Of a stretch of 42,025 nt of DNA, positions 8,680 through 38,051 are shown piece after piece. Made by a program: the position numbers and the translations under genes. This stretch comes from a virus. Its lineage: Duplodnaviria > Caudoviricetes. Within the stretch, counting starts at the first letter, position 1; each line of letters opens with the position of its first letter. The notes beneath the pieces were generated by a model. That model did no database searches. It was given only the letters and a program-made list of their open reading frames with translations, and was not told the origin of the DNA. The stretch covers positions 1 through 42,025 of IMG/VR virus record IMGVR_UViG_3300025168_000186. The stretch is one strand, 5' to 3'.

Positions 8680-8685
8680 AACTAT

Positions 8686-9144
8686 TTATTTACGCCAGTC
8701 CCAAACACTGTCTTTGTTTTTAACTCTAGAAAGACTACCATAGTCAATATATGTTCCTCTATTTATAAAAAGTACTTTATCATATAATAGGGCATCACCA
8801 AAGTTATCTCCAAAAGAATTAGATACCTGGCCATATTCTTTAGCACCTTTTTCTTTAAGAAACTCAAAAAATTTAGAAATCATTTCTAATTTTATGTTTT
8901 GATTAGGTTCAAGATTTCCTTTACGCATTGGTTTAGGAACTATTGAATCCATTTCTTTGCTTTTTTTACCATCACCTCTTTTATACCATTGATGTTTTAT
9001 TTTTTGTTCAGGAACAATAACGAATCCACTTTCTAAATATGAATCATCACTTTCATCGTTAAATTCCATAGAAATAGTATAAGCTACTTTCATTAGTCTT
9101 TCTTCAACTTTACTCTCATTCAAAAATTCGTTTATTCCTTTCAT
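8686..9144 (-). CDS. Leader-bearing putative internal head protein, function unknown
   Basis: Leader MKGINEFLNE. Confidence 0.75.
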   Translation of the reverse strand: MKGINEFLNESKVEERLMKVAYTISMEFNDESDDSYLESGFVIVPEQKIKHQWYKRGDGKKSKEMDSIVPKPMRKGNLEPNQNIKLEMISKFFEFLKEKGAKEYGQVSNSFGDNFGDALLYDKVLFINRGTYIDYGSLSRVKNKDSVWDWRK

Positions 9145-9152
9145 AACTATTT

Positions 9153-9353
9153 TTATTTTTCACAATCTTCACAAGCTTCACAGTCACAGTCACAATCAAC
9201 AGTTTTAAAACTACTAATTAATCTTTGAACTCCAAATCCAAGTGCAATTCCAAAAGGAAACCAATTTCCATAAAATGCAAATCCAGCCGCAACTGCAAAT
9301 GCAAAAATCGAGTTGAACCAACCCGAATTAACTACTTTTTTAATCTTATTCAT
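9153..9353 (-). CDS. Small membrane protein with a Cys/acidic tail
   Basis: Two hydrophobic segments; C-terminus DCDCDCEACEDCEK. Confidence 0.7.
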   Translation of the reverse strand: MNKIKKVVNSGWFNSIFAFAVAAGFAFYGNWFPFGIALGFGVQRLISSFKTVDCDCDCEACEDCEK

Positions 9354-9387
9354 ATCTATTATTTATTTTTAAAGAATTTATCATATT

Positions 9388-9651
9388 CTATTTAACTATT
9401 TCATTATACATTTGAGTTGCCAATTGAGCAATTTCTGATTTAAAGGCCACTTTCATATCGTGAGGTAAATGACCAGCAAATTTCTCAACAACACTGTGAG
9501 CTTTGATTCCCATAATTATACCTTCTGCTTTTTCCTTTGATTCAGAAACAGCAATTCCAACATAACCTTTCTTTACTAAACTTTGAATTTTAGTTTTAGT
9601 TCCTTTAACTGCAAAGAAATCTCCATCTTTTGATAATACGCAATATGCCAT
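9388..9651 (-). CDS. Hypothetical protein (probably early)
   Basis: 87-aa ORF; start context matches that of 25461-25964. Confidence 0.7.
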   Translation of the reverse strand: MAYCVLSKDGDFFAVKGTKTKIQSLVKKGYVGIAVSESKEKAEGIIMGIKAHSVVEKFAGHLPHDMKVAFKSEIAQLATQMYNEIVK

Positions 9652-9672
9652 AGTAGTAAGTTTTAAGTTTAG

Positions 9673-9882
9673 TTATTTTTTAAGTTTTTGATAGTAAAGT
9701 TTCAAGTTTAGGTAGCGTTCTCCCTCTTCGTAATGCCATGCTTCTCTAACCCAGTTTTCTTTTTCTAATGGGTCGTAACCTATGATAAATTTGTAATCTT
9801 TTTCACTTACAAATTCTTTAGTATTAACTAAATTTTCATATCTTTGATATTCTATTAAATTTTCGTAATCTATTTCTGTCAT
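9673..9882 (-). CDS. Hypothetical protein (probably early)
   Basis: Start moved to ATG 9882 (MTEIDYEN), downstream of the promoter-stem-loop repeat. Confidence 0.7.
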   Translation of the reverse strand: MTEIDYENLIEYQRYENLVNTKEFVSEKDYKFIIGYDPLEKENWVREAWHYEEGERYLNLKLYYQKLKK

Positions 9883-9895
9883 TTTTTGTAGTATT

Positions 9896-9968
9896 AAAGT
9901 TAAACAATAAGTTGATGACCTCATCAACAATTACAATGTACGAATAAATATTGACATTTGCAACTTTT
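9896..9968 (-). promoter_or_regulatory. Repeated early-promoter plus stem-loop element, copy 1
   Basis: AAAAGTTGCA...TACATTG followed by the hairpin GTTGATGA-GG-TCATCAAC (9911-9928). Confidence 0.75.
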
Positions 9969-9981
9969 CGAGCACATATGA

Positions 9982-10626
9982 TTAATTTATTTTTACTCTT
10001 TCTTCACCTTGCAAAAAGTTGTTTTTTATTGCTTTAGTACATTTTTTATAAATCTTAATATCCTTAACAAGTAAAATTTCGATATTTCTTTCTTTAATTA
10101 TATCCTTGTCTTTGTTTTCATAATAAACGTTTATATCTTCGCAGAAATCAATTCTATTCCAAAATTTATTTTTATCAGATACCCATCCTACTCTTGCTTC
10201 TTTGTAAAAGAAACCTTTTCCTTCCAAAACTAAGTCCATTATGGATTTGTTATCATATTCAGAAGCATTACTAACACTTGACCATATTCCAGTATATGAA
10301 TTTGTAGCACCGTTAGATTCAAATTGGAAAAAACTCGCATCAATATAACGGTTAACTTTTTTATGAGTGGGTTTTACAACTTCTGATTTAGTAAGTGAAT
10401 ATTTTACTTGATTGTAATTTTTACTTTTTAACCAGGCATTAAGTTTATCGTAGTGTTTTTTCATTGCAGTTTCCATATTTCCTTTTACAAAAGCAACTTT
10501 ATTAAGTTCTACCCAGATTTTAGGAATCCAAGTATTCAACTTTACTACCACTTCTTTTACACCTTTATATGTATCGAACTCTATCAAAAAAGCTTTTTCC
10601 GTTTCTCTAATAACTGTATAATCCAT
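9982..10626 (-). CDS. Hypothetical protein (probably early)
   Basis: Start moved to ATG 10626 (MDYTVIRETEKAFL). Confidence 0.75.
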   Translation of the reverse strand: MDYTVIRETEKAFLIEFDTYKGVKEVVVKLNTWIPKIWVELNKVAFVKGNMETAMKKHYDKLNAWLKSKNYNQVKYSLTKSEVVKPTHKKVNRYIDASFFQFESNGATNSYTGIWSSVSNASEYDNKSIMDLVLEGKGFFYKEARVGWVSDKNKFWNRIDFCEDINVYYENKDKDIIKERNIEILLVKDIKIYKKCTKAIKNNFLQGEERVKIN

Positions 10627-10645
10627 ATATCTTGTTTTTATCTTT

Positions 10646-10703
10646 GTTGATAACCTCACCAACAATTACAATATACGAATAAATATTGACATTTGCAACT
10701 TTT
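10646..10703 (-). promoter_or_regulatory. Repeated early-promoter plus stem-loop element, copy 2
   Basis: Near-identical to 9911-9968; hairpin variant GTTGGTGA-GG-TTATCAAC. Confidence 0.75.
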
Positions 10704-10712
10704 TAGGCATAA

Positions 10713-10745
10713 GAAAACCGATAAATCAAAGAAATATCGGTTCTC
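10713..10745 (-). terminator. Probable intrinsic terminator
   Basis: aaccgata...tatcggtt inverted repeat. Confidence 0.55.
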
Positions 10746-10762
10746 ATTTTAACTTTTTTAAG

Positions 10763-11014
10763 TTATGATTTTTTAAGATTCTTAATACATTGTATTGCCC
10801 ATGATTGAACATCGGCATTTAATTCATCTAATGAATCACTAAAAGGAAAATCATCTACTGCATTGTCATTGTATAAATCACTATCATCATCTATCCAATC
10901 AATTGTAAGTTCTTTGAAAGCTTTTGCCAAGTTACCTATAAGTTTGATGGCTTCAGCAGCTTCTTTTGATGCTTCGTTTAACTTTCCTTCGTTTAGTTCT
11001 TTTAATGTTTTCAT
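10763..11014 (-). CDS. Leader-bearing small acidic protein
   Basis: MKTLKELNEGKLNEAS (doubled LNE). Confidence 0.7.
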   Translation of the reverse strand: MKTLKELNEGKLNEASKEAAEAIKLIGNLAKAFKELTIDWIDDDSDLYNDNAVDDFPFSDSLDELNADVQSWAIQCIKNLKKS

Positions 11015-11032
11015 TTTTTATATTTATTTTAT

Positions 11033-11368
11033 TTAATCAAGACTATATAAATCTTTAATTTTCTTATGTTTAAATTTAGCACCTAAGTCTGTTTGCATAG
11101 ATGGTTTATAAGTTGCATCTTTGTGAAAGTCTTTAAGGTATTGCATCATTCTTGAACCAAAACCTTTTCTTCTATATTTAGGAACAACAACAACATCACT
11201 TACTGTTAGCTCTTTTTCAAAAATAACATACTCTACCATACCTACAATATCTCCGTTAATATACATACCTAACTCGTAGTTATTTTGACCTCCGTAAGAA
11301 TCTAAATGTTCAACTTTATATTCAATCTTAGTTTTAGATTCGTTTAGTATGTCTAAATAACTTTTCAT
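11033..11368 (-). CDS. GNAT acetyltransferase with capsid-targeting-like leader
   Basis: VVVPKYRRKGFGSRMM acetyl-CoA-binding motif; leader MKSYLDILNE. Confidence 0.82.
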   Translation of the reverse strand: MKSYLDILNESKTKIEYKVEHLDSYGGQNNYELGMYINGDIVGMVEYVIFEKELTVSDVVVVPKYRRKGFGSRMMQYLKDFHKDATYKPSMQTDLGAKFKHKKIKDLYSLD

Positions 11369-11373
11369 ATCTA

Positions 11374-11859
11374 TTATTTAATTAGCATAATCTGTTTGGG
11401 TTCAAATGCAACATATTCTGCTTTATACATTTGTTTTCCTACTTGGATGCCATCGAAACCTTTTCCTTTTACCATATTTGTCCACTTTTCAAGTTGTGTA
11501 TCTGTTTGTCGTCCAGATAGTTGTCCACTGAACCAATCACTATCTCTTATTAGTGGATTTTGTATTGATAGATAACAACTAAGAACAACTGGTTTTCCTT
11601 TTCCTTGTATTTCTACAGACTGTTTTGCATATTCCAATGCAAGTAGTCTATCAGGTGTAAAATAGAAACCTTTACCATACATTCCCCAATCAGTTTTTCC
11701 AAAATTATTATAACTGAAAGTATTAAAATGTACATTTGTTCCGTGATATACAATCAACGGTTTACCATCATGGTCTAGCACTTTAGAATCCTTGAACCAT
11801 TCAAAAAAAGTTTTATCTAATTTTGAACCTTCGTTTAAATATTCGTCTAATCCTTTCAT
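11374..11859 (-). CDS. ADP-ribosyltransferase-like protein (ART-PolyVal type) with capsid-targeting-like leader
   Basis: WFKDSKVLDHDGKPLIVYHGT, GKGFYFT, YA, GFDGI and EYVAFEPKQI (H-Y-E triad pattern); leader MKGLDEYLNE. Confidence 0.8.
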   Translation of the reverse strand: MKGLDEYLNEGSKLDKTFFEWFKDSKVLDHDGKPLIVYHGTNVHFNTFSYNNFGKTDWGMYGKGFYFTPDRLLALEYAKQSVEIQGKGKPVVLSCYLSIQNPLIRDSDWFSGQLSGRQTDTQLEKWTNMVKGKGFDGIQVGKQMYKAEYVAFEPKQIMLIK

Positions 11860-19481: not shown

Positions 19482-21050
19482 CTATACAACTTTCTTAAAC
19501 AAATCATCAAATGCTGATGTAGTCGATGCTTGAAATTGTGGGGCTGGTGTATATTCACCTTTATACCTTACTTCAATATTAACTAAAACTTTACCACCAA
19601 GTGAAATAGTAAAGAATATTTTTGCAGCACCTTCTTCTCCTTTTGGAATTTCAAATGCTTGTGTTTTTGCTTCGTTCAACTGAACTTTTAACTTATCATT
19701 TGACATCAAATCACTTATTACACTAATTGTAGTATCAAGGTCTTTCATATCTGCAGTTCCTACTTCAATGGTGTCTTTCAATTTCTTACCAATACCAGTG
19801 TTCAACCAAAAATCAAATCTACCTTCCGATAACTCAGTAACAACATCGTCTATCGTTTGGTTATTAGGTACTAATGTCTTCATTTCAGTTCTAAATGCGA
19901 GGTCAAAGAAACCTTGCATAAACTTTTTACCATTTCTTGGAACGGCATCAGCAATAGTTTTATAAAAGTGGAATTCCTGACTTTCATTTGATTTAAGTGC
20001 GCTTGTTATAATAGATTTATTTGTTTTTCTAACTACACCGAAAAGTTTTTTCTCAGACATTTTCTTCAAGGCATCTTTTTCTTTTGATGTTTTTGCATTA
20101 TTTATCAAAACAGTTCTAAAGAAGTTCACCCTTGCGTCTTCAATAACTTTAAGTTCACCTTTATCTAAAATGTTTTTCAACATACTACTTTCGCCAGTTG
20201 CCGGTTTGTTAATCAAGGTTGGATTTGCCGAAGACGATTTGAGTTTCTTTTTCAAAGAGAAACCATAGTAATTATTATTGGAACCTTTTATTATAATATC
20301 CGATGGGTTGAAGTTTTTAAAACTTTTTGCAGAATCTTCTGGATTGAATATTTCAATATCCTTGTGCCATGATTGACCTGTCCAATATGCTTTAGTTGGT
20401 TTCGCACCTTTTTTCTTCATAGTTTCCAAAATCGCATTACTTGATGATATGCTTGGTGCTAAATCAATATAGTTCATGTTAATACCATCTTTTATTTGCG
20501 TTTCTTTACCTTCTTGTCCTTCAACTTCACCAACTTTACCCTCTACTAATGCAAGTATTTTATCACAATCCTCCAGTGGTATGTTTGGTTCGGAATAAAT
20601 TGTTCCTAATAATACCAATGCGGCAGTTAAGACTTCTTGTACATCAATAGTTGTTTTCAGTGATTTAAAGAATATATCAATAGTTTGTGGTTTATTATCT
20701 TTAACTAATCCAGAATTGCCAATTCCAATACGAATCTTTCCCATTGTACCTGAAGTTAGTTCTTTCCAATCCCCTCCACCATCAGATGTTTTGAAATAAT
20801 CCTCAACAAAACTAATAACCGATTTTTTCGCTTGTGGTCGTTCTGATGATTTCATTTCAGTAACTACAATCTTAGTAGATATACCAGAAATAGGAGCTTC
20901 TGAATAGTTTTTTGTAGGTTCATCAGGGTCAACAAAAGATGAATAACCTTGACTACTCAACCAAGAAATAAATGCGGTGTAAAATTGGTCGTTTGGTGTT
21001 AATTCGTCTGTTAATAAATTTTCATTTAAAAATTGTCTGTAATCTTTCAT
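19482..21050 (-). CDS. Leader-bearing 522-aa protein, putative PD-(D/E)XK-like nuclease
   Basis: Leader MKDYRQFLNE; QE...NPSDIIIK...GFSLKK resembles a restriction-endonuclease-like active site. Confidence 0.6.
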   Translation of the reverse strand: MKDYRQFLNENLLTDELTPNDQFYTAFISWLSSQGYSSFVDPDEPTKNYSEAPISGISTKIVVTEMKSSERPQAKKSVISFVEDYFKTSDGGGDWKELTSGTMGKIRIGIGNSGLVKDNKPQTIDIFFKSLKTTIDVQEVLTAALVLLGTIYSEPNIPLEDCDKILALVEGKVGEVEGQEGKETQIKDGINMNYIDLAPSISSSNAILETMKKKGAKPTKAYWTGQSWHKDIEIFNPEDSAKSFKNFNPSDIIIKGSNNNYYGFSLKKKLKSSSANPTLINKPATGESSMLKNILDKGELKVIEDARVNFFRTVLINNAKTSKEKDALKKMSEKKLFGVVRKTNKSIITSALKSNESQEFHFYKTIADAVPRNGKKFMQGFFDLAFRTEMKTLVPNNQTIDDVVTELSEGRFDFWLNTGIGKKLKDTIEVGTADMKDLDTTISVISDLMSNDKLKVQLNEAKTQAFEIPKGEEGAAKIFFTISLGGKVLVNIEVRYKGEYTPAPQFQASTTSAFDDLFKKVV

Positions 21051-21604
21051 TATCTAGGTACTTTTTTAATATCGTCTAGTGCTTCTACAACTGCCAATTC
21101 AACTAATCCTTTAGCTGATTCATTTTCTAATAATGCCATATTATCCATTACCGGGGTTTTAAACTTTATAGTTTCTATACCAGCAATATCTTTATCTATA
21201 ATTTTACCTTCTTCATCCACATTAATAGAAACAGAAGAACTGAATTCTACACTTATTGAATAAGTTTCATCTTTATAAGTTGTTTCGATTAAAGGGATTA
21301 TAGTAAAAGAATTATATTCTTCATCTAATATTTTTTCCGAAACATATTGTTTTACTGAACTTTTAAATGCATCTACAAATAATTCGTCTTCGAAAATTTT
21401 TATCAACTCTTCCTCCCCTTCTTCTTCCTCTTCTTCCTCTTCTTCAGCGTCATCTTCTTCAGCAGAATCATCTTTTTTCTTTTCGGGAAAAGTTCCCTTT
21501 TCAGTTTCTTCAGTTTCAACTTCTTCCTCTTCTTCAGCTTCGTTTATACCTAAACGTTCTAACAGTTTAGAATGTTGGTTAAAAAATTTTCTATAATCTT
21601 TCAT
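21050..21604 (-). CDS. Highly acidic protein with leader variant, possible prohead core protein
   Basis: MKDYRKFF...GINE followed by poly-Glu tracts. Confidence 0.65.
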   Translation of the reverse strand: MKDYRKFFNQHSKLLERLGINEAEEEEEVETEETEKGTFPEKKKDDSAEEDDAEEEEEEEEEGEEELIKIFEDELFVDAFKSSVKQYVSEKILDEEYNSFTIIPLIETTYKDETYSISVEFSSSVSINVDEEGKIIDKDIAGIETIKFKTPVMDNMALLENESAKGLVELAVVEALDDIKKVPR

Positions 21605-21651
21605 ATCAATTGTTTCGTTTTAATATTTAATACTTACTTTAAATATACACA

Positions 21652-21685
21652 AAAATTCTTAGAAAAACAAGTCCTAAGAATTTTT
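21652..21685. terminator. Probable terminator
   Basis: aaaattcttag...ctaagaatttt inverted repeat. Confidence 0.55.
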
Positions 21686-21687
21686 AT

Positions 21688-22215
21688 TTAAAAATTAGCG
21701 TTTTTATCTTGCTGTTGTTTTATTTCTTCTGGGTCTTCTTTAGATGCCCAAATTGTGCTTCTTGCTGTACTTTGTTCTTCGTAGGAACAATTCATAAATG
21801 TATTACTGAATTTCATTTTGCAATAATCATCTAATTCTTTTCTTTGGTCTGGACTTAAATCGTTATATACTGCAATTTTATCAGCATCTTCTGAACCAGA
21901 ATATCCACCAAATGCAATACTTTCTGCAACATATTCATCTGGTATTTCTATAAGACTGCTACGTATTAAAAATTCATCATCATCGTATCCAAATTTTTGA
22001 ATAAGTTTTTCTATTTTATCAGCACCTTTAGGTTTACCTATTGGTCCTGTATCAAGATGTGTTGGATTTACAAAAGATAAATCGTTACCATCTAATTCAA
22101 TATCTTCCATACCTAATTTAGAAAGTAATTTTGTTAATTCACTTATGAACTTTTTATCACTTAATGGGTCCTTGTATTCGTCATTTTCTGTTAAAAATGT
22201 TCTATAATTCTTCAT
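21688..22215 (-). CDS. Leader-bearing putative internal head protein
   Basis: Leader MKNYRTFLTE. Confidence 0.75.
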   Translation of the reverse strand: MKNYRTFLTENDEYKDPLSDKKFISELTKLLSKLGMEDIELDGNDLSFVNPTHLDTGPIGKPKGADKIEKLIQKFGYDDDEFLIRSSLIEIPDEYVAESIAFGGYSGSEDADKIAVYNDLSPDQRKELDDYCKMKFSNTFMNCSYEEQSTARSTIWASKEDPEEIKQQQDKNANF

Positions 22216-22495
22216 CTTTATTTTCTTTTTTGTTCTTTTTACCTATACCTTCAACTAATGTTCCAGCTCCTAATAATCCAGCTCCTGTTATAATTATAAA
22301 TTGTATTAAAGATTCAGCATTTGAATCTGAATAACCATCAAAAGATTTATATACATAATAAGTTGCTGCAATAAGAGACCACTTTATCATTAGTATTCCA
22401 CAAATTCGTTTACTACTTACTTTAGAATCTTTGTGAAAAGCGCCTGTATACCAATTCAAAAATCTTTTAAATATGTTTTCTTTATCTTTTGACAA
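22202..22495 (-). CDS. Two-TM membrane protein, holin-like
   Basis: SSKR motif, two hydrophobic helices, charged C-terminus. Confidence 0.55.
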   Translation of the reverse strand: MSKDKENIFKRFLNWYTGAFHKDSKVSSKRICGILMIKWSLIAATYYVYKSFDGYSDSNAESLIQFIIITGAGLLGAGTLVEGIGKKNKKENKDEEL

Positions 22496-22505
22496 TTTTA
22501 TTTAT

Positions 22506-23855
22506 TTATTTTTGAATAGGATTACCTTTGTTGGGTCCATGTTTATGAATATAATTAGAAGTTCCTGTTTTAAGTTTTCTTAATAGGTTTTTACGTTCTC
22601 TATCCAAAGGAATTATTTTACCTTCTTTTTTTCCTTTTTTGATATCATCAATTTCTTTTTCTAATTCTTTAAGTCTGTTAAATTCTTCTTGACCTAAACT
22701 TTCTATTTTTTCAAGAAAATTAACTTTAGCACTTTCTATTGTACCCGTTATTTTAGAATTTCTATCTCTAATTTTTACTCTATCATCGGAATCTGGGTCG
22801 GATAGTACATCATAAACCTTTGCCGCTTCAGCTTTACTATCGGCATATCCTTTTTTCCATTTTACTACATCGCCAGTTTGAATATTTGATTTCTTTTCGT
22901 TTAAAAATTCGTTTAACGCTTTCATAGTTCTATTTGATTTTTGTTCTTTTACATAAGGAAACATTGCATCTATTTTACCTCCGTTTAAATCGGATGCAAT
23001 TTTAGCTACTTGCTCAGGTTCAATTTTCGGCATATCCTTTCTTGCCGGTGCTCCTGCTGGCAGTTTCTTAGATTGAATTGCTTTCAGTCTTTTTTCAACT
23101 AAATCTTTTCCTAAAGTTTCATACCAAGCAATTGAAGCATCTTTGTTGTAATATTTTTTATTCATATTCTTACCCGTATAAACAGCATCTTCAATATCTT
23201 GAATAGTTGCTTTATAGATATTTGTGTCTCCACCTTTAGGTTCTACACCTCTTTCGTTTCCTAATGCATCACCAGCTTTTCTTAATACAGGAACTAAATC
23301 TCCTATTGTTAAGTTAGATTGCATACCTTGTACTTTTGCATTTGGATTTCCGAACATAGTTGCAGCCCATCTATGATGACCATCTAAAATATAATTATCT
23401 CTGGAGACCATTGCATTCAAATCACCACCAACTATATTGTTGATTGCCATATCTAATGCTTTACTTAAATAAATTGCATCTTGACTAGGTTTCAATGCTT
23501 TTGCCGGAATACTAAACCTTTTAGTTTCAATTACATCATCACTGAAATCACCATCTTTTTTACCGTTTTTGAAAAATTCATCATCTTTCATCGGACCATC
23601 ATTTGAAAACTTATTTGGGTCGATTTCTTTTGTTTTCAAGTCTTCGAAAATTTCTGAATAAGAAAATACTTCACCACCATATTCTTTGGCAGCTTTTTCT
23701 GCATCTTTTTTATCTTCAAAGGGAAGAGATATGTGTTTATTATCAGTGAATGATATTTTTTTCATACCATGATATGTAAGATATTTTTCTCCTTTTTTGA
23801 CACGAAAAGTGTCTTTGTATTTTGCTTCGTTTAAAAATTCGTTGAATGATTTCAT
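22506..23855 (-). CDS. Leader-bearing multidomain protein with a ParB/Srx-like domain and an internal second leader
   Basis: MKSFNEFLNE; LKPSQ...VSRDNYILDGHHRWAA; internal MKALNEFLNE at ATG 22925. Confidence 0.8.
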   Translation of the reverse strand: MKSFNEFLNEAKYKDTFRVKKGEKYLTYHGMKKISFTDNKHISLPFEDKKDAEKAAKEYGGEVFSYSEIFEDLKTKEIDPNKFSNDGPMKDDEFFKNGKKDGDFSDDVIETKRFSIPAKALKPSQDAIYLSKALDMAINNIVGGDLNAMVSRDNYILDGHHRWAATMFGNPNAKVQGMQSNLTIGDLVPVLRKAGDALGNERGVEPKGGDTNIYKATIQDIEDAVYTGKNMNKKYYNKDASIAWYETLGKDLVEKRLKAIQSKKLPAGAPARKDMPKIEPEQVAKIASDLNGGKIDAMFPYVKEQKSNRTMKALNEFLNEKKSNIQTGDVVKWKKGYADSKAEAAKVYDVLSDPDSDDRVKIRDRNSKITGTIESAKVNFLEKIESLGQEEFNRLKELEKEIDDIKKGKKEGKIIPLDRERKNLLRKLKTGTSNYIHKHGPNKGNPIQK

Positions 23856-23871
23856 AATATTAGTTTCTTTT

Positions 23872-24213
23872 CTAGTCGTAATCTCTTAATGTTATTTTCC
23901 AAGAACGAACTTGTCCTAAAGGCACACCTAATTCTTTAGATTTTTTTTTCATTTCTCTTTTAAAAACCATAAAAACTTTGTCTGCAAGTGCTCTTGCTTT
24001 ACCATCTTTTCCAAATAGTTCATTTGTTGTTTCTCTAACAACCTTTGCACTATTTTTCATTTTCTTGGTTTGTTTAATTCGTCTTTCACTTAATTCGTCT
24101 TCACTTTCAATGTCGTCTTCATCAGGAATATCTAAATCGACTGTAATTTCGATATCATTTTCGTCTTCATCGTTTTCTTCAGATTCATATAAAAATTCGT
24201 TTAATGATTTCAT
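23872..24213 (-). CDS. Leader-bearing acidic-then-basic protein, possible prohead core protein
   Basis: MKSLNEFLYE, acidic stretch ending in LSE, then a Lys/Arg-rich half. Confidence 0.7.
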   Translation of the reverse strand: MKSLNEFLYESEENDEDENDIEITVDLDIPDEDDIESEDELSERRIKQTKKMKNSAKVVRETTNELFGKDGKARALADKVFMVFKREMKKKSKELGVPLGQVRSWKITLRDYD

Positions 24214-24239
24214 AATTTATTTACTTTTTTATAATATAT

Positions 24240-24827
24240 TTAATCGTTGTCCGGGTCTTCTATATTATCATCTTCTTCTGTATCTAAATCTTGTAATAAT
24301 GCCTTTGCATTCGTATAAACTTTTGTTTCTTTATTTCCAGAAACATCAATACTATTGTCTAGTACTTGTGCCTGTGGCAATTCTCCTTGCATACGTCTAA
24401 ATTCTTCTTGCATCGAAATAACGTGCAGTTGAACATTCTTTAACATATCAATAATATTTCCTTGTAATTGACCAGCAACTTCAAACAATCTTGGATTCAT
24501 ATCTCCAGCATCAATTCCGTTGACAATCTTATCAACCATATGTTCTGCAATTTTTATTTGTCTAAAAAGAGTTTTTATATTAGATGTGGTCACTGCAGCT
24601 TTGGCTTGCATAAATTCATTTTGAGATAGAATTTTTGCATCGAAATAAAGTTTCATACAAGAAAGAACAATTTTCTGTGCTTTCATTTTTGTTTTATTGT
24701 CAACTTCTGCAATGTTTAAAGGTTCTATTGGGTCTATTTCTAATGCTGGAAATCCTACACCAGAATCTTGGTCGTTAATTAGACCGGCAATTTCATCTTT
24801 TAAATAATCTTTGTCTTTATCTTTCAT
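24240..24827 (-). CDS. terS: Terminase small subunit (T4 gp16-like)
   Basis: NPRLFEVAGQL resembles the gp16 PRAxEVxxxL motif; helical protein; terL is nearby. Confidence 0.7.
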   Translation of the reverse strand: MKDKDKDYLKDEIAGLINDQDSGVGFPALEIDPIEPLNIAEVDNKTKMKAQKIVLSCMKLYFDAKILSQNEFMQAKAAVTTSNIKTLFRQIKIAEHMVDKIVNGIDAGDMNPRLFEVAGQLQGNIIDMLKNVQLHVISMQEEFRRMQGELPQAQVLDNSIDVSGNKETKVYTNAKALLQDLDTEEDDNIEDPDND

Positions 24828-24868
24828 AATAAATAGTATCTACACTATTTAACAAAGACAAAAAACAC

Positions 24869-25279
24869 CTATATGTCGGTGTCCTTTATCTTTTCTATGA
24901 ATTCAAACATTTTTTCGTTAGATTCAAAATACTCTACATAATTATGAAAAAATGGTAAGAAATGGTCAGAATGTGTTTCTTTTATAACAACAAATGCTTT
25001 TTTTAATACCTCTCTACCAGCTCTAGGGTGTTTAAAGAAAAACAACTTTTCGTGCTCTTCTATGTATTTTTCTGAATGTCTTTCTGGAATTGACCAATGT
25101 ACAACCCATTCGTTAGTATTCGATGGATTGGATTCTAAATAAGGTTCTCCTTCAGGACCCCATCCTTCGGGCACTTCGGGTTTTAATACGTTGTCAGAAG
25201 TACGAATACTACTTACTTTATTAAAAAAATACCATTCAGCTGTTTCAACCAAATGGTAAGATAAGATTTCTTTTTTCAT
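24869..25279 (-). CDS. Hypothetical protein
   Basis: 136-aa ORF. Confidence 0.7.
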   Translation of the reverse strand: MKKEILSYHLVETAEWYFFNKVSSIRTSDNVLKPEVPEGWGPEGEPYLESNPSNTNEWVVHWSIPERHSEKYIEEHEKLFFFKHPRAGREVLKKAFVVIKETHSDHFLPFFHNYVEYFESNEKMFEFIEKIKDTDI

Positions 25280-25449
25280 TCTTCAAAGTTTAGTAACAAG
25301 GTCCAAATTGATAATGAACCTATCATATAAACACAAAGAAAATCTACATCTTGTAGATTAGTAAAAAATTGTTGCATTACGCATATCATAGCAAAAGCTG
25401 AAATTACTAATTGCGTTGTTCGTTTAAAGAATGTTTTTAATATAGTCAT
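25276..25449 (-). CDS. Small two-TM membrane protein (57 aa, below the ORF-track cutoff)
   Basis: MTILKTFFKRTTQLVISAFAMICVM...IWTLLLNFEE*; ATGA overlap with the downstream gene. Confidence 0.6.
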   Translation of the reverse strand: MTILKTFFKRTTQLVISAFAMICVMQQFFTNLQDVDFLCVYMIGSLSIWTLLLNFEE

Positions 25450-25460
25450 ATTTTTATATT

Positions 25461-25964
25461 TTAGTTAATACTCAATCCTACTACGATTCTTCTTGCCACT
25501 CTTAAAGTTTTGTAACGGCCATGTTTTACGATTTCAACATTCGAAGCTGAAGTTTTTATCGTTTCTCCAACATCGTTGATTCCGATTAAAGTTTCTGAAA
25601 TAACTCTACCGAATTTCTTGAATGCTCTAACTTCTTCGATTTTGAAAGTTTCATCTTTGAACTTTCTTACTCTTGGATTAGTAACCTTAACAACATCACC
25701 TTCTTCAAGGTTGAAACTTCCTAATCTTCTTGGAACTTCGTTGATTGCATATTCAGTTGCCAACTCTTCGTACTTTTCAACTTCTTTAAGGTCTGACCTT
25801 ACATCATCATATTCATGTGGAAATTCTACTGAACCACCAAATCTGGTTGAACCCCAAATGTGCTTGATAACTTTTTTTTCTTTGGTATCTACGAACATCG
25901 TGTAGAAATCCGAATCGTTATAGTAATTATTTTCTCCTCCGTAGTATGCAATAAATCTTTTCAT
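25461..25964 (-). CDS. Hypothetical protein with a KOW/SH3-like C-terminal segment (probably early)
   Basis: Start moved to ATG 25964 (MKRFIAYY); LEEGDVVKVT motif. Confidence 0.7.
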   Translation of the reverse strand: MKRFIAYYGGENNYYNDSDFYTMFVDTKEKKVIKHIWGSTRFGGSVEFPHEYDDVRSDLKEVEKYEELATEYAINEVPRRLGSFNLEEGDVVKVTNPRVRKFKDETFKIEEVRAFKKFGRVISETLIGINDVGETIKTSASNVEIVKHGRYKTLRVARRIVVGLSIN

Positions 25965-25978
25965 AGTAGTAAATTTTA

Positions 25979-26020
25979 AGTTAAACGTTGATAACCTCAC
26001 CAACAATAACAAGATACGAA
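25979..26020 (-). promoter_or_regulatory. Repeated early-promoter plus stem-loop element, copy 3
   Basis: TATCTTG plus the GTTGGTGAGGTTATCAAC hairpin (25987-26004); upstream part overlaps a terminator-like hairpin at ~26022-26050. Confidence 0.7.
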
Positions 26021-26073
26021 AACGGTTCCATAGTTTTGTCATAGAACCGCCATAATTAGTTTGTTTTCAAAAA

Positions 26074-26259
26074 TTACAAATAAACTTCATAATCAGAATT
26101 CTCGTTGTAATTAATAAAATCTAACAACTCTTCTATTTGATGTGTTTTTTTACTAAACATTTGTTCGTCAATTTGTTCACCATCGTTGACTACTATAATG
26201 TTAAATTCATATCCTCTACTGAATTGTTTTCTTACGCTAGTTTCTTTGTAAATATCCAT
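26074..26259 (-). CDS. Hypothetical protein
   Basis: 61-aa ORF. Confidence 0.6.
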   Translation of the reverse strand: MDIYKETSVRKQFSRGYEFNIIVVNDGEQIDEQMFSKKTHQIEELLDFINYNENSDYEVYL

Positions 26260-26285
26260 ATTTATTGATTTTAGATTAGTAAATT

Positions 26286-26666
26286 TTAAAGTGTTGCAAT
26301 TGCTCTTCTTGGTAACTTGTAAGAAACTCCATCAGAAACTTTCGTTGCTATTATAGGAAACTTAGGACTTCTTGGTTTGAAACCAGTAAGTTCAAATTGA
26401 CTACCGTTGTAAGAAAACTTTTTCTTGAAATCTTTAGGTTCTAAACCGAACCTTTTACAAAAGTTACCGAATTCAACTTCTGCACCACTGATTCTTTTAC
26501 CAGTACTTGTTACAGTTTTTGTTACCTTTAGTTTAGAAGTAAAGGATTGGTCGGTATAAGATATGTTACCTATTCCTATTTCAACTTTGTATTGCTTTTC
26601 AAGTTTAGCAACTGCACTAGCGAAATCTGTTCTGAAACTGTTTAATTCTGTTCTTGTAAATGCCAT
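26286..26666 (-). CDS. Hypothetical protein (probably early)
   Basis: 126-aa ORF directly downstream of the promoter repeat. Confidence 0.75.
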   Translation of the reverse strand: MAFTRTELNSFRTDFASAVAKLEKQYKVEIGIGNISYTDQSFTSKLKVTKTVTSTGKRISGAEVEFGNFCKRFGLEPKDFKKKFSYNGSQFELTGFKPRSPKFPIIATKVSDGVSYKLPRRAIATL

Positions 26667-26680
26667 TTTTAGTAATTTTA

Positions 26681-26753
26681 AAAGTTAAACAATAAGTTGA
26701 TGACCTCATCAACAATTACAATATACCGAATCTATTTGACAATTGCAACTTTT
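26681..26753 (-). promoter_or_regulatory. Repeated early-promoter plus stem-loop element, copy 4
   Basis: aaagttaaacaataagttgatgacctcatcaacaattacaat is identical to 9896-9937. Confidence 0.75.
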
Positions 26754-26756
26754 AGA

Positions 26757-26891
26757 CTACTTATTTTCATTTATTTTTATTCTTAATTGAAATTCTTCAT
26801 AGGGAAGCCATTCGTCAGTTTCTATATTTCTGTATCCTGGATATCCTAAATATAGTGAATCATCTGGGCTTCTTTCGTAAACCCACAACAT
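26757..26891 (-). CDS. Small hypothetical protein (44 aa)
   Basis: MLWVYERSPDDSLYLGYPGY...; fills an intergenic gap. Confidence 0.45.
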   Translation of the reverse strand: MLWVYERSPDDSLYLGYPGYRNIETDEWLPYEEFQLRIKINENK

Positions 26892-26924
26892 TATATCTAT
26901 CAATTTTTTTACTTTTAAATGTAA

Positions 26925-27455
26925 TTAACTCTTTAACTTTTTATCTTGACCTCTTTTTCGAACTTCATCTGCCATATCTTTATCGGCTTTTCCCCAAGTT
27001 CCTGATGACTTAGTTAGAAAAGAACTTAATCTTGCATATCCCCATTGTTGTTGATTTGCACCGGGTCTGTGGCCAGTTTTCCAAGCTGCCATTCCTCTTT
27101 TCATAATAGTTCTTAGAATGTCTAAGTCAACTCCAGATTCTTCTTTTTTCTTTTTGAGTGCTTTTTCTATTGCAGCATCATCAATTTTACTACCATTAAG
27201 ACCTTCTGGTTTTTTATCTTCGTTTATAGATTCTTTCTTGTAAAGTTTGTTGTATTTCTTAGTATGTTTACTAGTTTTAACATCTCCATCTTCTCTTGCT
27301 TCCTCATCACCTGGTGCGTCTTTGTATGCACTATCAGAAGAATCTGATTTAGATGTTTGTTTTTTGAACAAGGCTTCTCTATCATCTTTATCGTCTTTAT
27401 CTACACCTTTGTAGTATTTCTTGGATTCCTTTAAAAAATATCTAAAACTTTTCAT
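26925..27455 (-). CDS. Leader-bearing DUF5824-like protein
   Basis: Leader MKSFRYFLKE; RGMAAWKTGHRPGANQQQWGYARL motif, recalled from viral DUF5824 proteins. Confidence 0.65.
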   Translation of the reverse strand: MKSFRYFLKESKKYYKGVDKDDKDDREALFKKQTSKSDSSDSAYKDAPGDEEAREDGDVKTSKHTKKYNKLYKKESINEDKKPEGLNGSKIDDAAIEKALKKKKEESGVDLDILRTIMKRGMAAWKTGHRPGANQQQWGYARLSSFLTKSSGTWGKADKDMADEVRKRGQDKKLKS

Positions 27456-31206: not shown

Positions 31207-31274
31207 ATGTTTATAGTTTAGCGAGTATGTAATTTCATATTAATGTATTCTGGTTGACATAATAATCAGCACTA

Positions 31275-32491: not shown

Positions 32492-32493
32492 AT

Positions 32494-34411: not shown

Positions 34412-34451
34412 AAAAAAAAGAGGATAATATTTTACTACTATCCTCTTTTTT
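34412..34451. terminator. Intrinsic terminator ending the leader-cassette array
   Basis: aaaaaagaggata...tatcctctttttt. Confidence 0.7.
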
Positions 34452-34466: not shown

Positions 34467-35276
34467 CTATATTGAATTTCTAAGTCTTGCTAAAATATCT
34501 TTTTGTCTAGAAACATTTCCACCACTTGACATAACAGCATCTGCTAACCATTTTGCAGCACCTTTTTTATTTTTAACTCCTTTGTCGTATTTGATAATTG
34601 CATCTACTAAATACTTATCACCATCAGTAACTATTTCAGCACTGAATTGTACATCATCGGCATCCAATTTTTGTGTGCCCCAATTTGATTGTTCATCAGC
34701 TAAACTTTCTATAAAGTTTAACAATTGTTGATTTGAATAATCCAAAGCACCTTCGTTCAAGAATTCTTTATTTCCATTTAGTACAGCATTAGTAATACTC
34801 AATCTATCTTTTAAACTTCCTTTCTTTGCAAATGTAAAAAGTTTCTTTGCAAATTTAACATCACCTCCTATAAAATCTATAACTGCAGTAACTCTTAATC
34901 CTGTATAGTGTGCAATATCTTTTGATAAAGAATCTACTAGATTTTGTCCAGATTGACTTTCGTTTATTCCTTTCTTAATATTATCAAGTTTTTTCTTTGC
35001 TTCTTCAATATCCTTTTCTATAAACTTAATAAACTTTGGATTGGTTTCAGCTTCTAATTCTTTGTGTAAGTCAATAAGATACATTGCCATATTGTTCATA
35101 TCTCTTTGTTTACCTTCGTTCATTTCTTGATGTTTGATATACATCTCTTTATATTCTTTTATTTTCTTATTACTCAAAGAAGAAAATTGAAACCAAGTCA
35201 TTCCATAATAACTTGCAACAGCTTTTAGGTCTACTGATTTTTTCTTTTCGTTCAGAAATTCGTTTAATGGTTTCAT
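34467..35276 (-). CDS. Leader-bearing putative internal polyprotein
   Basis: MKPLNEFLNE; internal EMNE/G, GINE/S and EFLNE/G. Confidence 0.8.
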   Translation of the reverse strand: MKPLNEFLNEKKKSVDLKAVASYYGMTWFQFSSLSNKKIKEYKEMYIKHQEMNEGKQRDMNNMAMYLIDLHKELEAETNPKFIKFIEKDIEEAKKKLDNIKKGINESQSGQNLVDSLSKDIAHYTGLRVTAVIDFIGGDVKFAKKLFTFAKKGSLKDRLSITNAVLNGNKEFLNEGALDYSNQQLLNFIESLADEQSNWGTQKLDADDVQFSAEIVTDGDKYLVDAIIKYDKGVKNKKGAAKWLADAVMSSGGNVSRQKDILARLRNSI

Positions 35277-35281
35277 ATCTA

Positions 35282-35737
35282 TTATTTATTTATTTTATAA
35301 ACTTCTCTAGGAATTACATAATATTCTACTTGAACTTCATATTCAGAATATTCGTCTATATCATCTGGATAAATTGTAGTTATAGAACCTTCTCCTCTAC
35401 CACCAGCATCACTAACAAAATGAATTTTTCCTTTACCGTCAGGAACGTAATCATCACCATTATCTATTTTAGCATATTTGGTATTCCCAGTATATCCATG
35501 GTGGATTGCTAATCTAAATAAATCTCTTGGTGTTACTCTACGCCCTAAAACATTTACACGAACTCTAATTTCCCCAGATTTAGTAATAAAGAATTCTCTC
35601 TGAACAAAAATTCCTTTAGACTGATAATCTTTTGTTTTCAATTCTTTATTCATTTTAACTAGGGTCTTTTTATCAATCCCCAGTTTCTTTGCGTTCATAT
35701 CATCACTCTCATTTAAAAATTCGTTTAATGGTTTCAT
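35282..35737 (-). CDS. Leader-bearing putative internal head protein
   Basis: MKPLNEFLNE. Confidence 0.8.
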   Translation of the reverse strand: MKPLNEFLNESDDMNAKKLGIDKKTLVKMNKELKTKDYQSKGIFVQREFFITKSGEIRVRVNVLGRRVTPRDLFRLAIHHGYTGNTKYAKIDNGDDYVPDGKGKIHFVSDAGGRGEGSITTIYPDDIDEYSEYEVQVEYYVIPREVYKINK

Positions 35738-35747
35738 AATCTATTAT

Positions 35748-36053
35748 TTATTTAAAATATAATTTAATTAAAATCTTATAGTTCCAATGGTCATATCCGA
35801 CAATATGTTCTTTTTTCTTATCAATTATTACATAACAATCATCTTCACCACCATTACCGTCAAAATAATCACCATTAACTATAACATATTGTTTATTTTC
35901 TTTAATAGGGGAATCAATTTGTGATTTGTCAACTTTAATATATGCGTTACTTGGTGTATCAATATATATGTTTAAAGTATTATCTCTTTGGTCTTCCCAA
36001 GTTTTCCCCTTAAAGTTGTTTTCTTCGTTCAAAAATTCGTTTAATGGTTTCAT
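35748..36053 (-). CDS. Leader-bearing putative internal head protein
   Basis: MKPLNEFLNE. Confidence 0.8.
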   Translation of the reverse strand: MKPLNEFLNEENNFKGKTWEDQRDNTLNIYIDTPSNAYIKVDKSQIDSPIKENKQYVIVNGDYFDGNGGEDDCYVIIDKKKEHIVGYDHWNYKILIKLYFK

Positions 36054-36062
36054 ATCTATTGT

Positions 36063-36419
36063 TTATTTTTTCCAAAAGTAATACATTTCATATTGACGGT
36101 CCTGAAATTGAACAATTCCGACTTTTTTATTTAACCCATATATGTTACCTAAACCATCGTCTGCCCAAACTTGTGGGTCGTATCCTTTATTGAAAGCTTT
36201 TTCGACTTTGTTAAATACCATTTTATCTACATGTTTACTATTACCAGATTTGTTATATAATGCCTGATTGCTATTTACAGATAAAATATCTGATGCTTTT
36301 TTAGCACCTAAAATTGACATAATATGTTTAATAGTTTCTGGTTCAAATGGACCATCCGTGATATTATAATTTGATTCAGAACTAAAGGATTCATTTAAAA
36401 ATTCGTGTATTGCTTTCAT
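36063..36419 (-). CDS. Leader-bearing putative internal head protein
   Basis: MKAIHEFLNE. Confidence 0.8.
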   Translation of the reverse strand: MKAIHEFLNESFSSESNYNITDGPFEPETIKHIMSILGAKKASDILSVNSNQALYNKSGNSKHVDKMVFNKVEKAFNKGYDPQVWADDGLGNIYGLNKKVGIVQFQDRQYEMYYFWKK

Positions 36420-36455
36420 ATCTATTATTTATTTTAATCGTATCTATTATTTAAT

Positions 36456-37052
36456 TTAATCGTATCTTTCTTCATCTTTTCTAATGAAAAAATCATAACC
36501 CCAATCGTTTCCTTTATCACCTTCTCTTGCAAGTACAATTTCTTTACTTCCATACCAATCTGTAAAAAAGTTGCGAGGATATTCAGTAATCGAATCTAAT
36601 TCTTTTGTTATCTTTTTCCAATTTAATTTTCCTGGCCAATCACCGTACCTTTTGATTAGTTCAGGTAAAGTTTCAAAACCTTGTTCGAACCCACCACTAC
36701 CATCAGCACCTCTTTTAATGAAAACATATCTATATTTAGGTATGTCTGGTTGTCTTATAGTTAAACTAACCCATTCGTCAACTTCTTCAATTTGAAATTT
36801 TAAATCTGGAAATTTCTTAGAAAGAATCTTTTCAACTCTTTTTACTTCTTTAACATCGGCAGAACCGGTTGTTTCACTTCCAACATTACCATTTTCTCTT
36901 GTTTGAAGCATAACTTCGTCAGTATGATAAGTAAAATCTTCATCATAAATATCCATATAAGTTTTAGTAGCTTTTATGGCATCAAGTAACTTTTTGTGAG
37001 TTCTACTTTCAAAATTAGTACTTTCATTAAGAAATTCGTTTAATGCTTTCAT
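36456..37052 (-). CDS. Leader-bearing putative internal head protein
   Basis: MKALNEFLNE. Confidence 0.8.
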   Translation of the reverse strand: MKALNEFLNESTNFESRTHKKLLDAIKATKTYMDIYDEDFTYHTDEVMLQTRENGNVGSETTGSADVKEVKRVEKILSKKFPDLKFQIEEVDEWVSLTIRQPDIPKYRYVFIKRGADGSGGFEQGFETLPELIKRYGDWPGKLNWKKITKELDSITEYPRNFFTDWYGSKEIVLAREGDKGNDWGYDFFIRKDEERYD

Positions 37053-37350
37053 ATCTATATATTGTCATTTTTCATTTTTTATTATTTATTTTAATCTTAT
37101 TCAGATTCAAATGATACATTTATATTTTTTTTAATGAATATTTTATCTAATTCTTTTTCTAAGTTATCTAAATTATCTTCTATAAAAGTAAAATAATCTG
37201 ATTTATCTTCTGCAGTAAACTCAGAAGTTTTTAACCACTTTTTTATTTTATCATGGTCAGAGGGTGTCGAACCAATTACAATTAATGTGTTTGGTTTACT
37301 TTCATTAAGAAATTCGTTTAATGCTTTCATATCTATATATTGTCATTTTT
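37019..37350. repeat. 54-bp exact direct repeat flanking a cassette (37019-37072 and 37297-37350)
   Basis: tactttcattaagaaattcgtttaatgctttcatatctatatattgtcattttt at both sites. Confidence 0.92.
37097..37330 (-). CDS. Leader-bearing putative internal head protein
   Basis: MKALNEFLNE. Confidence 0.8.
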   Translation of the reverse strand: MKALNEFLNESKPNTLIVIGSTPSDHDKIKKWLKTSEFTAEDKSDYFTFIEDNLDNLEKELDKIFIKKNINVSFESE

Positions 37351-37665
37351 TATTTTTTTGGATATAATTTTTTCCCAAATATCACTCGATAAGGGGTAAG
37401 CATCTTCAGTACCTTCCCATTCGTCAATATTGTGCCAAATAGATTGAATTGCAGCATAGACTAAATTGCCATATTGCACCATTTTTTCATCTTTATAAGC
37501 GTTCTTTACATAATTTGCATATTCATCAATAAATTCTTTTGCTGATTTCTTATCTTTAATTCCCATAAGTATATCAGAAATAGCTGACCAATTCTTTTCT
37601 GGGTCTATATTATAATCTATCGAAAGTTTTTTTCCTTCATTTAAAAATTCGTTTAGTGCTTTCAT
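37333..37665 (-). CDS. Leader-bearing putative internal head protein
   Basis: MKALNEFLNE. Confidence 0.8.
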   Translation of the reverse strand: MKALNEFLNEGKKLSIDYNIDPEKNWSAISDILMGIKDKKSAKEFIDEYANYVKNAYKDEKMVQYGNLVYAAIQSIWHNIDEWEGTEDAYPLSSDIWEKIISKKIKNDNI

Positions 37666-38051
37666 TATACTTTAATAATTTTTTGATTTCTACCTACTCT
37701 AAATTCAGCACCTCTATATAAGGTAATAACAACAAAAGATAAATCGTTTCCATTCTTTTCCAGTATACCTACAACAGTTAATCCATCAGATTCTCTTTGT
37801 AAAACAAAACGGTCTTCGCCAATATCCATAGCATCATAGACTAAATCGTTTATCATATCTACGGTTGCTTTGCTTATTACTGAATTTACTTCTTTAAAAG
37901 TAACTGGTTCATATGCAGCTTGACCTTTTTTATCTTTTCGATTTAATCTTTCGATTGCATGTGTAGTTGATTCAATATCAATATCAAACTTAATCTTTCT
38001 GGAAACATGTCCTTCACTCTTTTCATTTAATATTTCTCTGTAACTCTTCAT
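37665..38051 (-). CDS. Leader-bearing protein, possible DUF4258/RelE-like RNase fold
   Basis: MKSYREILNE; THAIERL...VVITLY pattern. Confidence 0.6.
   Translation of the reverse strand: MKSYREILNEKSEGHVSRKIKFDIDIESTTHAIERLNRKDKKGQAAYEPVTFKEVNSVISKATVDMINDLVYDAMDIGEDRFVLQRESDGLTVVGILEKNGNDLSFVVITLYRGAEFRVGRNQKIIKV

Follow-up and report, generated by a model that had tools for sequence, protein, structure and literature searches.

A tandem array of leader-tagged genes in an aquatic T4-like phage, probably shuffled at the codons of a putative capsid-targeting and cleavage signal

Two hypervariable internal-protein (IP) loci of T-even phages were reportedly described by Repoila et al. in 1994. 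Integrons hold promoterless cassettes in a tandem, one-strand array, each with its own 3' spacer, together with a palindromic site of attC size, the integrase IntI and the attI site. T-even IP loci consist of leader-tagged genes whose number, order and identity vary (PMC3012670, PMC2839356, PMC12373910). In T4, the ten residues of the leader, the capsid-targeting sequence (CTS), suffice for packaging, where positions 4 and 7 target, positions 8 and 10 direct cutting, and the protease gp21 cuts after L/I-X-E (PMC9026906). The T4 proteins Ip1-3 are each a specific inhibitor of GmrSD, each blocking a different restriction enzyme (PMC12373910). PeSL cassettes of phages RB49 and phi1 are repeat-bounded ORFans that are excised and inserted without a known integrase; they have been likened to integrons, and mini-circles were shown (Arbiol et al. 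2010, PMC2839356). Polyvalent proteins combine unrelated effector domains (ART, GNAT, BECR) in one chain that is predicted to be packaged and injected, with its domains set free by a protease (Iyer et al. 2017, PMC5512222). Here, we analyzed the virus record IMGVR_UViG_3300025168_000186 over its positions 1 to 42,025 (hereafter, the window), a 42-kb contig of 30% GC and 22% CheckV completeness from a large T4-like phage, which carries a tandem array of eight leader-tagged genes. Our preferred explanation, which we consider quite probable, is that the modules of this array are shuffled at the leader DNA or at internal [LIMK]NE codons (hereafter, with their variants, xNE), where the leader would be a T4-type CTS, xNE a protease cut site, and the shuffling a matter of short-homology recombination plus selection.

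The array comprises eight consecutive minus-strand open reading frames (ORFs), A (38051) to H (35276) in reading order, at 34467-38051 (Table 1), separated by spacers of -1 to 44 nt, several of which measure 2-10 nt. Each starts with a 10-residue leader that reads MK[AP][LI][NH]EFLNE in B-H and MKSYREILNE in A, followed by bodies of 201-777 nt (67-259 aa) that are unrelated except that C weakly matches module H2 over 37 residues (pairwise E 5e-4). A first-pass annotation of this DNA had read here eight consecutive genes with near-identical DNA at seven starts and unrelated bodies of 200-780 nt, all of which was borne out, the near-identity, which concerns B-H, with both its consensus and its positions. 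Its statement that repeats of 30-55 bp join the genes held for a single pair, C and D, which share 54 nt; all other exact repeats between leaders were just 11-28 nt long. The leader is not specific to the array: its motif occurs in 18 copies in the window, 17 at gene starts and 1 internal to a 449-aa gene, and the 17 leader genes form three groups within the 42 kb. An 11-nt core of the leader, TAAACGAATTT, occurred 11 times in the window versus 0.11 expected.

A comparison of the locus across relatives showed that cassettes were gained, lost and reordered, with breakpoints in leader DNA. A leader-pattern scan of metagenomes returned 31 loci, which came down to 11 pieces of the array locus after removal of duplicates and of the window's own contig (left out of the counts were L026/L027, the window's contig; L002/L006/L009/L020/L021, the contig of L001; L039/L040, with the L001 arrangement; the duplicates L025 and L034; and L018, where D lies in another context). 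Across these 11 pieces, we labeled 26 modules and counted 46 neighbor pairs (Table 1; the first modules of L015, L022, L024 and L032 are partial). The pieces represent at least 8 distinct arrays, a lower bound because L013/L016, L022/L030 and L033/L024 may each be one array. Gains and losses occurred before A, after A, in mid-array and within the last gene, and the order of modules changed as well: S0S precedes N in L033 but follows it in L030, and W precedes H1 in L031 but follows it in L024. In L001, whose terminase and neck gene are 91% and 95% identical to those of the window, the common cassettes show 94-99% DNA identity, A excepted. Contigs of 8 public runs (X4 and X5 stem from one study, X1 possibly from the source sample) yielded additional joints, each within a single contig: X4 and X5 join B to D, with C skipped exactly at the 54-nt repeat; X3 and X5 join D to F, skipping E; X11 joins D to G, skipping E and F, and has B and C replaced by 224 other letters; X9 joins G to H2, skipping H1; and in X4, A is preceded by 354 new letters and a 33-nt leader is doubled. 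Elsewhere, the related record G004 lacks the ART-PolyVal body, whose leader now stands on the next (GNAT) body, and a second array, located between a RecA-type gene and a helicase, differed in content in each of the five full loci (L010, L017, L019, L036, L037).

Assembly chimeras arising from the repeats might mimic such differences, since all data are metagenomic contigs and the 54-nt C/D repeat exceeds the 31-letter assembly word, breaking the contigs of the source run. However, outside C/D, no two leaders have more than 28 exact nt in common; the leaders at junctions match neither of the two window copies (that of D in L001 has TCA CTA); modules absent from the window turn up; and the same joints recur across separate studies, namely D-G (L032, X11), G-H2 (L032, X9), B-D (L001, L039, X4) and D-F (X3, X5). 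Chimeras can thus hardly be the cause. Two further candidate signals in these contigs were discarded. Joints that go back in order, considered as single-cassette circles, had short sides with unread sequence between them and are compatible with other leader loci, and nothing was drawn from an apparent copy-number excess of C (X1 contig depth 128 versus 102-105 in the flanks), as contig depth is no copy number.

Homology between arrays tended to end at leaders and xNE codons. In unguided pairwise blastn, 43 of 82 3' homology ends fell in the interval of -3 to +9 nt around an xNE end (random 5.3, maximum 15) and 64 of 78 5' ends within -50 to +3 (random 16.8, maximum 34), and this unguided test carries weight because the modules were themselves partly drawn from xNE sites. 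The 30 nt before the ATG tracked the upstream module (0.86 identity in 21 pairs, versus 0.69 in 27 pairs with the same downstream module and a background of 0.57), and the first 30 nt of the body tracked the downstream module (0.96 identity). Exchange therefore falls within the leader, and a cassette consists of body, stop and spacer. By the same measure, the translation start does not come with the leader, as the first-pass annotation had it, since the start spacer moves with the upstream cassette instead.

Internal xNE codons acted as joints as well. All 34 internal [LIMVK]NE sites in 6183 body residues sit at module borders (5.5 per 1000, versus 0.96 in leaderless genes), 26 of them at borders with a haplotype-variable neighbor, 6 at the fixed H3-H4 border and 2 at the start of the hybrid cassette X. 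Modules end in an xNE of their own (EMNE, GINE, GLNE) regardless of which module comes next, internal joints share just ~6-10 nt, and H2, W, S0S and Y4 were each found both as an own gene and fused. Cassettes therefore also fuse into polyproteins. Module Y4, for example, lies inside a polyprotein in L001 and forms a gene of its own behind MKSYKSFLNE in the record G001, with 92% identity between G004 and G001; the terminase (TerL) of the window is 91% identical to that of G004 and 54% to that of G001, and its neck gene 95% and 49%. Likewise, H1 was found in L007 between FLNE and EMNE inside a polyprotein (89% nt identity), in a phage that over 7 kb has otherwise no similarity to the window, and homologs of A and D use other leader dialects (MKHVKLFEQFLNE, MKNIPTYNQFKLNE and others) or stand behind another module at an xNE.

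The joints left scars. In the window, the gain of C left a duplicated B end (20 nt) and that of E a duplicated D end (22 nt); these mis-registered scars, along with the L013 leader that runs straight into the final 14 codons of H2, fit short-homology recombination better than a fixed site. The earlier proposal that leader DNA serves as a recombination site is partly supported, by the breakpoints in the leader and by a leader identity above codon bias, but internal xNE codons are joints too, and synonymous variation, scars and the H2 joint give no hint of a defined site. The same scars after C and D, the H2 joint, the short matches at internal joints and the synonymous freedom at leader codons 8 and 9 would also follow from selection only, i.e., from illegitimate joins made anywhere, with the leader DNA no preferred site and with survivors that keep leader and cut site. 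Yet the leader DNA was more alike than codon usage would give (26.5 of 30 nt identical versus 24.7 from window codon usage, p=0.002, a value that counts no independent events as the copies are related by descent). Among synonymous pairs, 127 of 165 were identical versus 103 expected, mainly via AAC at codon 5, whose third base is C in all 13 window leaders, compared with an AAC share of 29% within gene bodies and with 9 of 19 close to leaderless gene starts. The exact leader-to-leader excisions (C, ART) and the 33-nt leader duplication around an insert are, moreover, what crossover within a repeat gives. We give this selection-only reading a small, if real, chance. In 6 of the 7 array leaders, the motif ATAGAT preceded the start by at most 9 nt; none of 6 further leaders tested and none of 21 leaderless genes had it there. 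Of the conservation that had been described for the initiation region and synonymous positions, ATAGAT and the overall excess hold up, whereas codons 8 and 9 vary synonymously; the suggestion that neighbors share leader variants did not reach significance (MKA/MKP runs, p=0.057; DNA similarity of adjacent leaders, p=0.31 in the window and p=0.12 in the 11 pieces).

A dedicated site-specific recombinase acting on the core TAAACGAATTT would make the array a true integron analog. It would account for a core that is nearly invariant across 36 leaders (AAC at codon 5 in 32, GAA at codon 6 in 36 and TTT at codon 7 in 34, codons that the search pattern itself constrained) and for codons 8-10, which tend to track the downstream body (1.04 versus 1.96 mismatches). 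However, the core is missing at internal joints, leaders are rewritten into the dialect of each lineage, exchange occurs at all array positions, and no tyrosine or serine recombinase was found in five of five partial genomes (22-67% complete). We regard such an enzyme as very unlikely. Given the repeats of 11-28 nt, the synonymous variation, the scars and the negative search for an integrase in these partial genomes, general short-homology recombination plus selection appears likelier than an integron-type reaction. RecA-type genes lie in G001, in G002 and next to the second array in L017, and T4 amplifies and deletes at microhomologies of 6-10 bp (PMC9391042). In the first-pass description "integrase-free, integron-like", the likeness to integrons is an analogy already drawn for T4-type phages (PMC2839356).

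The leaders MKALNEFLNE and MKPLNEFLNE resemble the T4 CTS MKTYQEFIAE position by position: They are equal in length, identical at M1, K2, E6, F7 and E10, hydrophobic at positions 4 and 8, and fit the T4 pattern at each of positions 4, 7, 8 and 10. The gp21 motif L/I-X-E closes the leader, as LNE, in all eight array genes, and the final E (E10) is invariant in 35 of 35 homologs of A despite their varied leaders. A gp23 capsid protein and a gp21-type protease are encoded in 3 of 5 related records (two of these being one phage) and not on the 22%-complete window contig. In two of them, G001 and G002 (L045, L046), the protease forms a fusion of 544-612 aa with a long C-terminal region, coiled-coil and repeat-rich, that probably is the scaffold. 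Both capsid proteins carry an xNE within 9 residues of their start, and the G002 protease-scaffold has 9 [LIMV]NE in 612 aa (p 1e-6). By analogy with T4, the leader is likely a T4-type CTS and xNE likely the cut site of the prohead protease. The leader could alternatively be an expression tag or another targeting tag (start region, chaperone or membrane address), with internal xNE left-over leader ends that are not cut: LNE occurs twice in the leader, so internal copies could be crossover remnants, and the array shares its ATAGAT start region. The match to the T4 CTS, the terminal E kept across dialects, the same motif at capsid-protein N-termini and in one scaffold, and modules that keep their own xNE whatever comes next all argue against this possibility, which we give a slim chance.

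The course of events under this explanation begins with three steps that the arrays show. A cassette of body, stop and spacer is exchanged inside the next leader or at an xNE; a module stands either behind a leader or in frame behind the xNE of another, such that a gene toggles between single form and polyprotein; and modules travel between loci and distant phage lineages, adopting the local leader dialect. As in T4, the leader would dock the precursor in the prohead core and a gp21-type protease would cut after each xNE, with the consequence that fused and unfused forms would yield identical mature proteins. The released proteins would be injected and act against host defenses or on host machinery, like T4 Ip1-3 and Alt. 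Crossovers may be made by T4-type UvsX/RecA-gp46/47 or by replication template switching on matches of 6-30 nt, through out-of-register pairing of leaders or xNE codons between sister genomes or those of co-infecting phages. Selection would then retain products that keep leader and cut site, and circles may arise as by-products, as with PeSLs.

Several observations weigh against this explanation. The blastn homology ends are pairwise comparisons and not independent events; 39 of the 82 3' ends lie outside the narrow window around xNE, mostly within a leader, within a spacer or where H2 stops or is fused, 15 lie far from any xNE, deep in A and H4 (probably plain divergence), and 14 of the 78 5' ends miss. 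The H3-H4 border, which holds 6 of the 34 internal sites, is constant, the depletion of xNE within modules was not significant (P=0.15), and the L013 leader joint falls inside a module. The protease-scaffold of G001 has one [LIMV]NE, the leader bodies of G001 show no excess of internal xNE (2 in 1849 aa), and protease and capsid genes are known from distant relatives only (G001 TerL 54%). Recombination preference and selection, furthermore, are inseparable by sequence comparison. As regards the cargo, none of cassettes A-H had a significant family match in Pfam, PHROGs or NCBIfam; D gave no fold match at E<=0.001; the best structure-atlas match of G (0.89) was under the reliable range; and a model of A (pLDDT 81) gave weak matches, with CdiA-CT, RelE and ParE-type folds on top (best Z 6.1, rmsd 3.0, 80 aligned).

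In Foldseek, A likewise matched nothing at E<=0.001, with RelE/ParE-type entries on top. H31 and T110 of A are invariant in 35 of 35 homologs, and this pair fits the His plus Thr pattern of phage BECR RNases (PMC5512222). The model thus weakly suggests a BECR/RelE-type RNase fold for A. Other leader genes in the window encode a GNAT (1.9e-10) and an ART-PolyVal domain (3e-20), and the loci retrieved contain 109 leader ORFs in 69 clusters, where 3 of 55 cluster representatives from relatives had a Pfam match. Analogy with the T4 internal proteins makes counter-defense the likeliest role of the array cargo. The leader gene at 8272-8679 (-) has two HxT motifs, matches PHROG 36523 (function not assigned) at 5e-8 and found no match in a PDB sequence search. 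We take its HxT motifs to resemble those of 2H phosphoesterases, the family to which the T4 anti-CBASS protein Acb1 belongs.

The window encodes a T4-type TerL, a neck gene and a ribonucleotide reductase, and the runs carrying the array come from marine or aquatic sources. The closest cultured terminases are 29-34% identical and mostly belong to Bacteroidota phages (Tenacibaculum PTm1, pT24, Chryseobacterium MA9V, Flavobacterium MaF61; also PAU); a Bacteroidota host is a guess, as these matches are distant. Gene H had 0 matches in the cultured-phage collection, and two leader patterns gave 0 and 1 match in the five cultured TerL neighbors, none of which therefore uses the window dialect, as patterned. 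Among viral_contigs, a search for relatives with a cupin anchor returned none and the strict leader pattern only the contig of L001. Position 37387 is C in the window and T in all four runs aligned (possibly including the source run), a minor allele or an assembly error.

Several features lie beside the array or in its relatives. A block of sugar-modifying genes adjoins it at 29576-34382 (-), where L001, L013 and L024 carry different genes. L001 has a 198-aa leader-like gene (MKSLNEYTNHLNE; 1139-1735, -) inserted on the opposite strand behind its homolog of window 38223-38531, and at this place the window has a short MKSLNEF-like remnant (38533-38570, +). Cassette X (L001 2570-2833, L033 5613-5876) starts MKALNEFSNEEINE, a leader hybrid with the SEEINE end of module N and likely a relic of a former fusion. 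The 449-aa gene at 22506-23855 (-) is a fusion, and L012 joins a leader directly to its second module (after IFE); its DGHHRW motif is, we presume, typical of ParB-like domains. G001 holds two tandem homologs of cassette F (38-41%; L053 19072-19596). Farther away, 229-4450 (-) encodes collagen-like (Gly-X-Y) repeats with duplicated blocks, probably a fiber gene truncated at the contig end. Five copies of a 58-nt repeat (9911-9968, 10646-10703, 25987-26044, 26696-26753 and 27751-27808) lie upstream of small minus-strand genes; the minus strand of the best copies reads GTTGATGA-GG-TCATCAAC, a short hairpin, and the family resembles a PeSL-type cassette of early promoter and stem-loop.

Table 1. 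Features of the leader-gene array and of the other leader-gene groups (window positions), followed by module arrangements; a slash marks a new gene and a plus sign an in-frame fusion.
Feature	Position	Strand	Remark
Cassette A	37665..38051	-	128 aa, leader MKSYREILNE; first in array in every relative reaching this end
Cassette B	37333..37665	-	110 aa; preceded by A, X or K depending on haplotype; second locus L035 (92% aa)
Cassette C	37097..37330	-	77 aa; missing from L001, skipped exactly in X4 and X5 contigs
54-nt exact repeat, copy 1	37297..37350	-	gene B end, start region and C leader
54-nt exact repeat, copy 2	37019..37072	-	duplicated gene B end and D leader; scar of C gain
Cassette D	36456..37052	-	198 aa; 56 homologs with other leader dialects or in fusions behind a different module at xNE
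22-bp tandem duplication, one mismatch	36424..36467	-	D end and spacer; mis-registered junction scar before E, read from sequence
Cassette E	36063..36419	-	118 aa; next gene F here, H1 in L024; missing from L001, L032
Cassette F	35748..36053	-	101 aa; directly joined to D in X3 and X5 contigs
Cassette G	35282..35737	-	151 aa; directly after D in L032 and one X11 contig
Gene H leader and module H1	35115..35276	-	ends EMNE; fusion partner H2 here and in L031, W in L024
Module H2	34959..35114	-	fused both sides here; own-leader gene in L001, L015, L022, L024, L032
Module H3	34752..34958	-	after GINE; preceded by H2, Y3 or Y4 depending on haplotype
Module H4	34467..34751	-	after EFLNE; invariably last, invariably behind H3
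Terminator-like hairpin ending array	34414..34451	-	16 pairs, T tail
Eight array leaders	35247-35276 (H), 35708-35737, 36024-36053, 36390-36419, 37023-37052, 37301-37330, 37636-37665, 38022-38051	-	motif search
Second leader-gene group	8272..11859	-	starts 8679, 9144, 11368 (GNAT), 11859 (ART-PolyVal)
Third leader-gene group	19482..27455	-	starts 21050, 22215, 23855, 24213, 27455; internal leader 22925 is a separate gene start in L011
Haplotype, window (W)			A/B/C/D/E/F/G/H1+H2+H3+H4
Haplotype L001			A/X/B/D/H2/Y0+Y3+Y4+H3+H4
Haplotype L013			K/B/../Y0+Y3+H3+H4
Haplotype L016			A/S
Haplotype L015			D/T0+T/H2/Y
Haplotype L022			N+S0S/K/H2/Y
Haplotype L030			A/N+S0S/K
Haplotype L024			X/D/E/H1+W/R/H2/Y0+Y2+Y3+Y4+H3+H4
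Haplotype L031			V/W/S/H1+H2/Y0+Y3+H3+H4
Haplotype L032			D/G/H2/Y0+Y1+Y2+Y3+Y4+H3+H4
Haplotype L033			A/S0S/N+T/X/D

Variable leader-tagged IP loci and integrase-free, repeat-bounded shuffling have already been published for T4-type phages (PMC2839356, PMC3012670, PMC12373910). What differs here is the use of a coding repeat as the joint, the tight, promoter-free array, and the switch between single and fused form at the predicted cut site; a literature search, mostly of papers outside subscription and of main texts, returned no description of xNE-bounded modules that switch in this way. The data provide base-level, population-scale evidence for the T-even idea that leader-tagged injected proteins are shuffled by recombination, and add a grammar in which modules are bounded by a predicted protease site and alternate between single gene and polyprotein, linking T4 internal proteins to polyvalent proteins. 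More broadly, cut-site codons may be a universal joint across aquatic T4-like phages, at once crossover point in DNA and cut site in protein, such that any xNE-bounded module could be placed after a leader or linked in frame to others and would come free whole inside the capsid, with the modules a library of injected counter-defense effectors that circulates among distant lineages and is readable from sequence, a proposition whose chances we see as evenly balanced. If packaging is true, injected cargo and its mature ends would be readable from sequence. Since T4 internal proteins each block a different restriction enzyme (PMC12373910), leader ORFs are a candidate pool of new counter-defense proteins.

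Compared with integrons, the array shares the tandem one-strand cassettes, each with its own 3' spacer. No palindromic site of attC type followed the cassettes, with spacers of -1 to 44 nt and joints in coding DNA; changes occurred at many array positions rather than at a single attI-like insertion point; and no IntI-type tyrosine integrase was found in five of five records (22-67% complete). PeSL cassettes are likewise repeat-bounded ORFans for which no integrase was identified, but their repeat is an intergenic sigma70 early promoter plus stem-loop, whereas the array repeat is coding DNA for a protein signal.

The T4 CTS/IP loci come close in that a 10-residue leader ending in L/I-x-E is placed on unrelated small bodies that vary in number, order and identity; T4 ipII and ipIII (both MKTYQEFIAE) have 46 nt in common that span the start region, with its ribosome site, and the leader. 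T-even IP genes occupy two small loci, whereas the window has 17 leader genes in three groups, in another host group and dialect. Promoter and stem-loop elements have been reported for the T-even cassettes, but the array spacers leave no room for them: Matches of sigma70 type, the type searched for, numbered 29 versus 26.6 expected, and a hairpin was found only at the array end. Polyprotein fusion at an internal xNE is a feature of the array that we did not find in a small sample of 17 CTS genes, taken from T4 and from six T-even ipII/III loci (seven phages). Polyvalent proteins join domains in one chain and carry an embedded peptidase; the array chains hold 2-7 modules in up to 445 aa without a family match, and without a peptidase or MuF-type domain (no Pfam match at 1e-3 in the polyproteins scanned), and ART, GNAT and the weak BECR fold occur as single leader genes. 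Unlike polyvalent domains, the units of the array also exist as stand-alone leader genes, and their release from the fused chains would be the work of the head protease.

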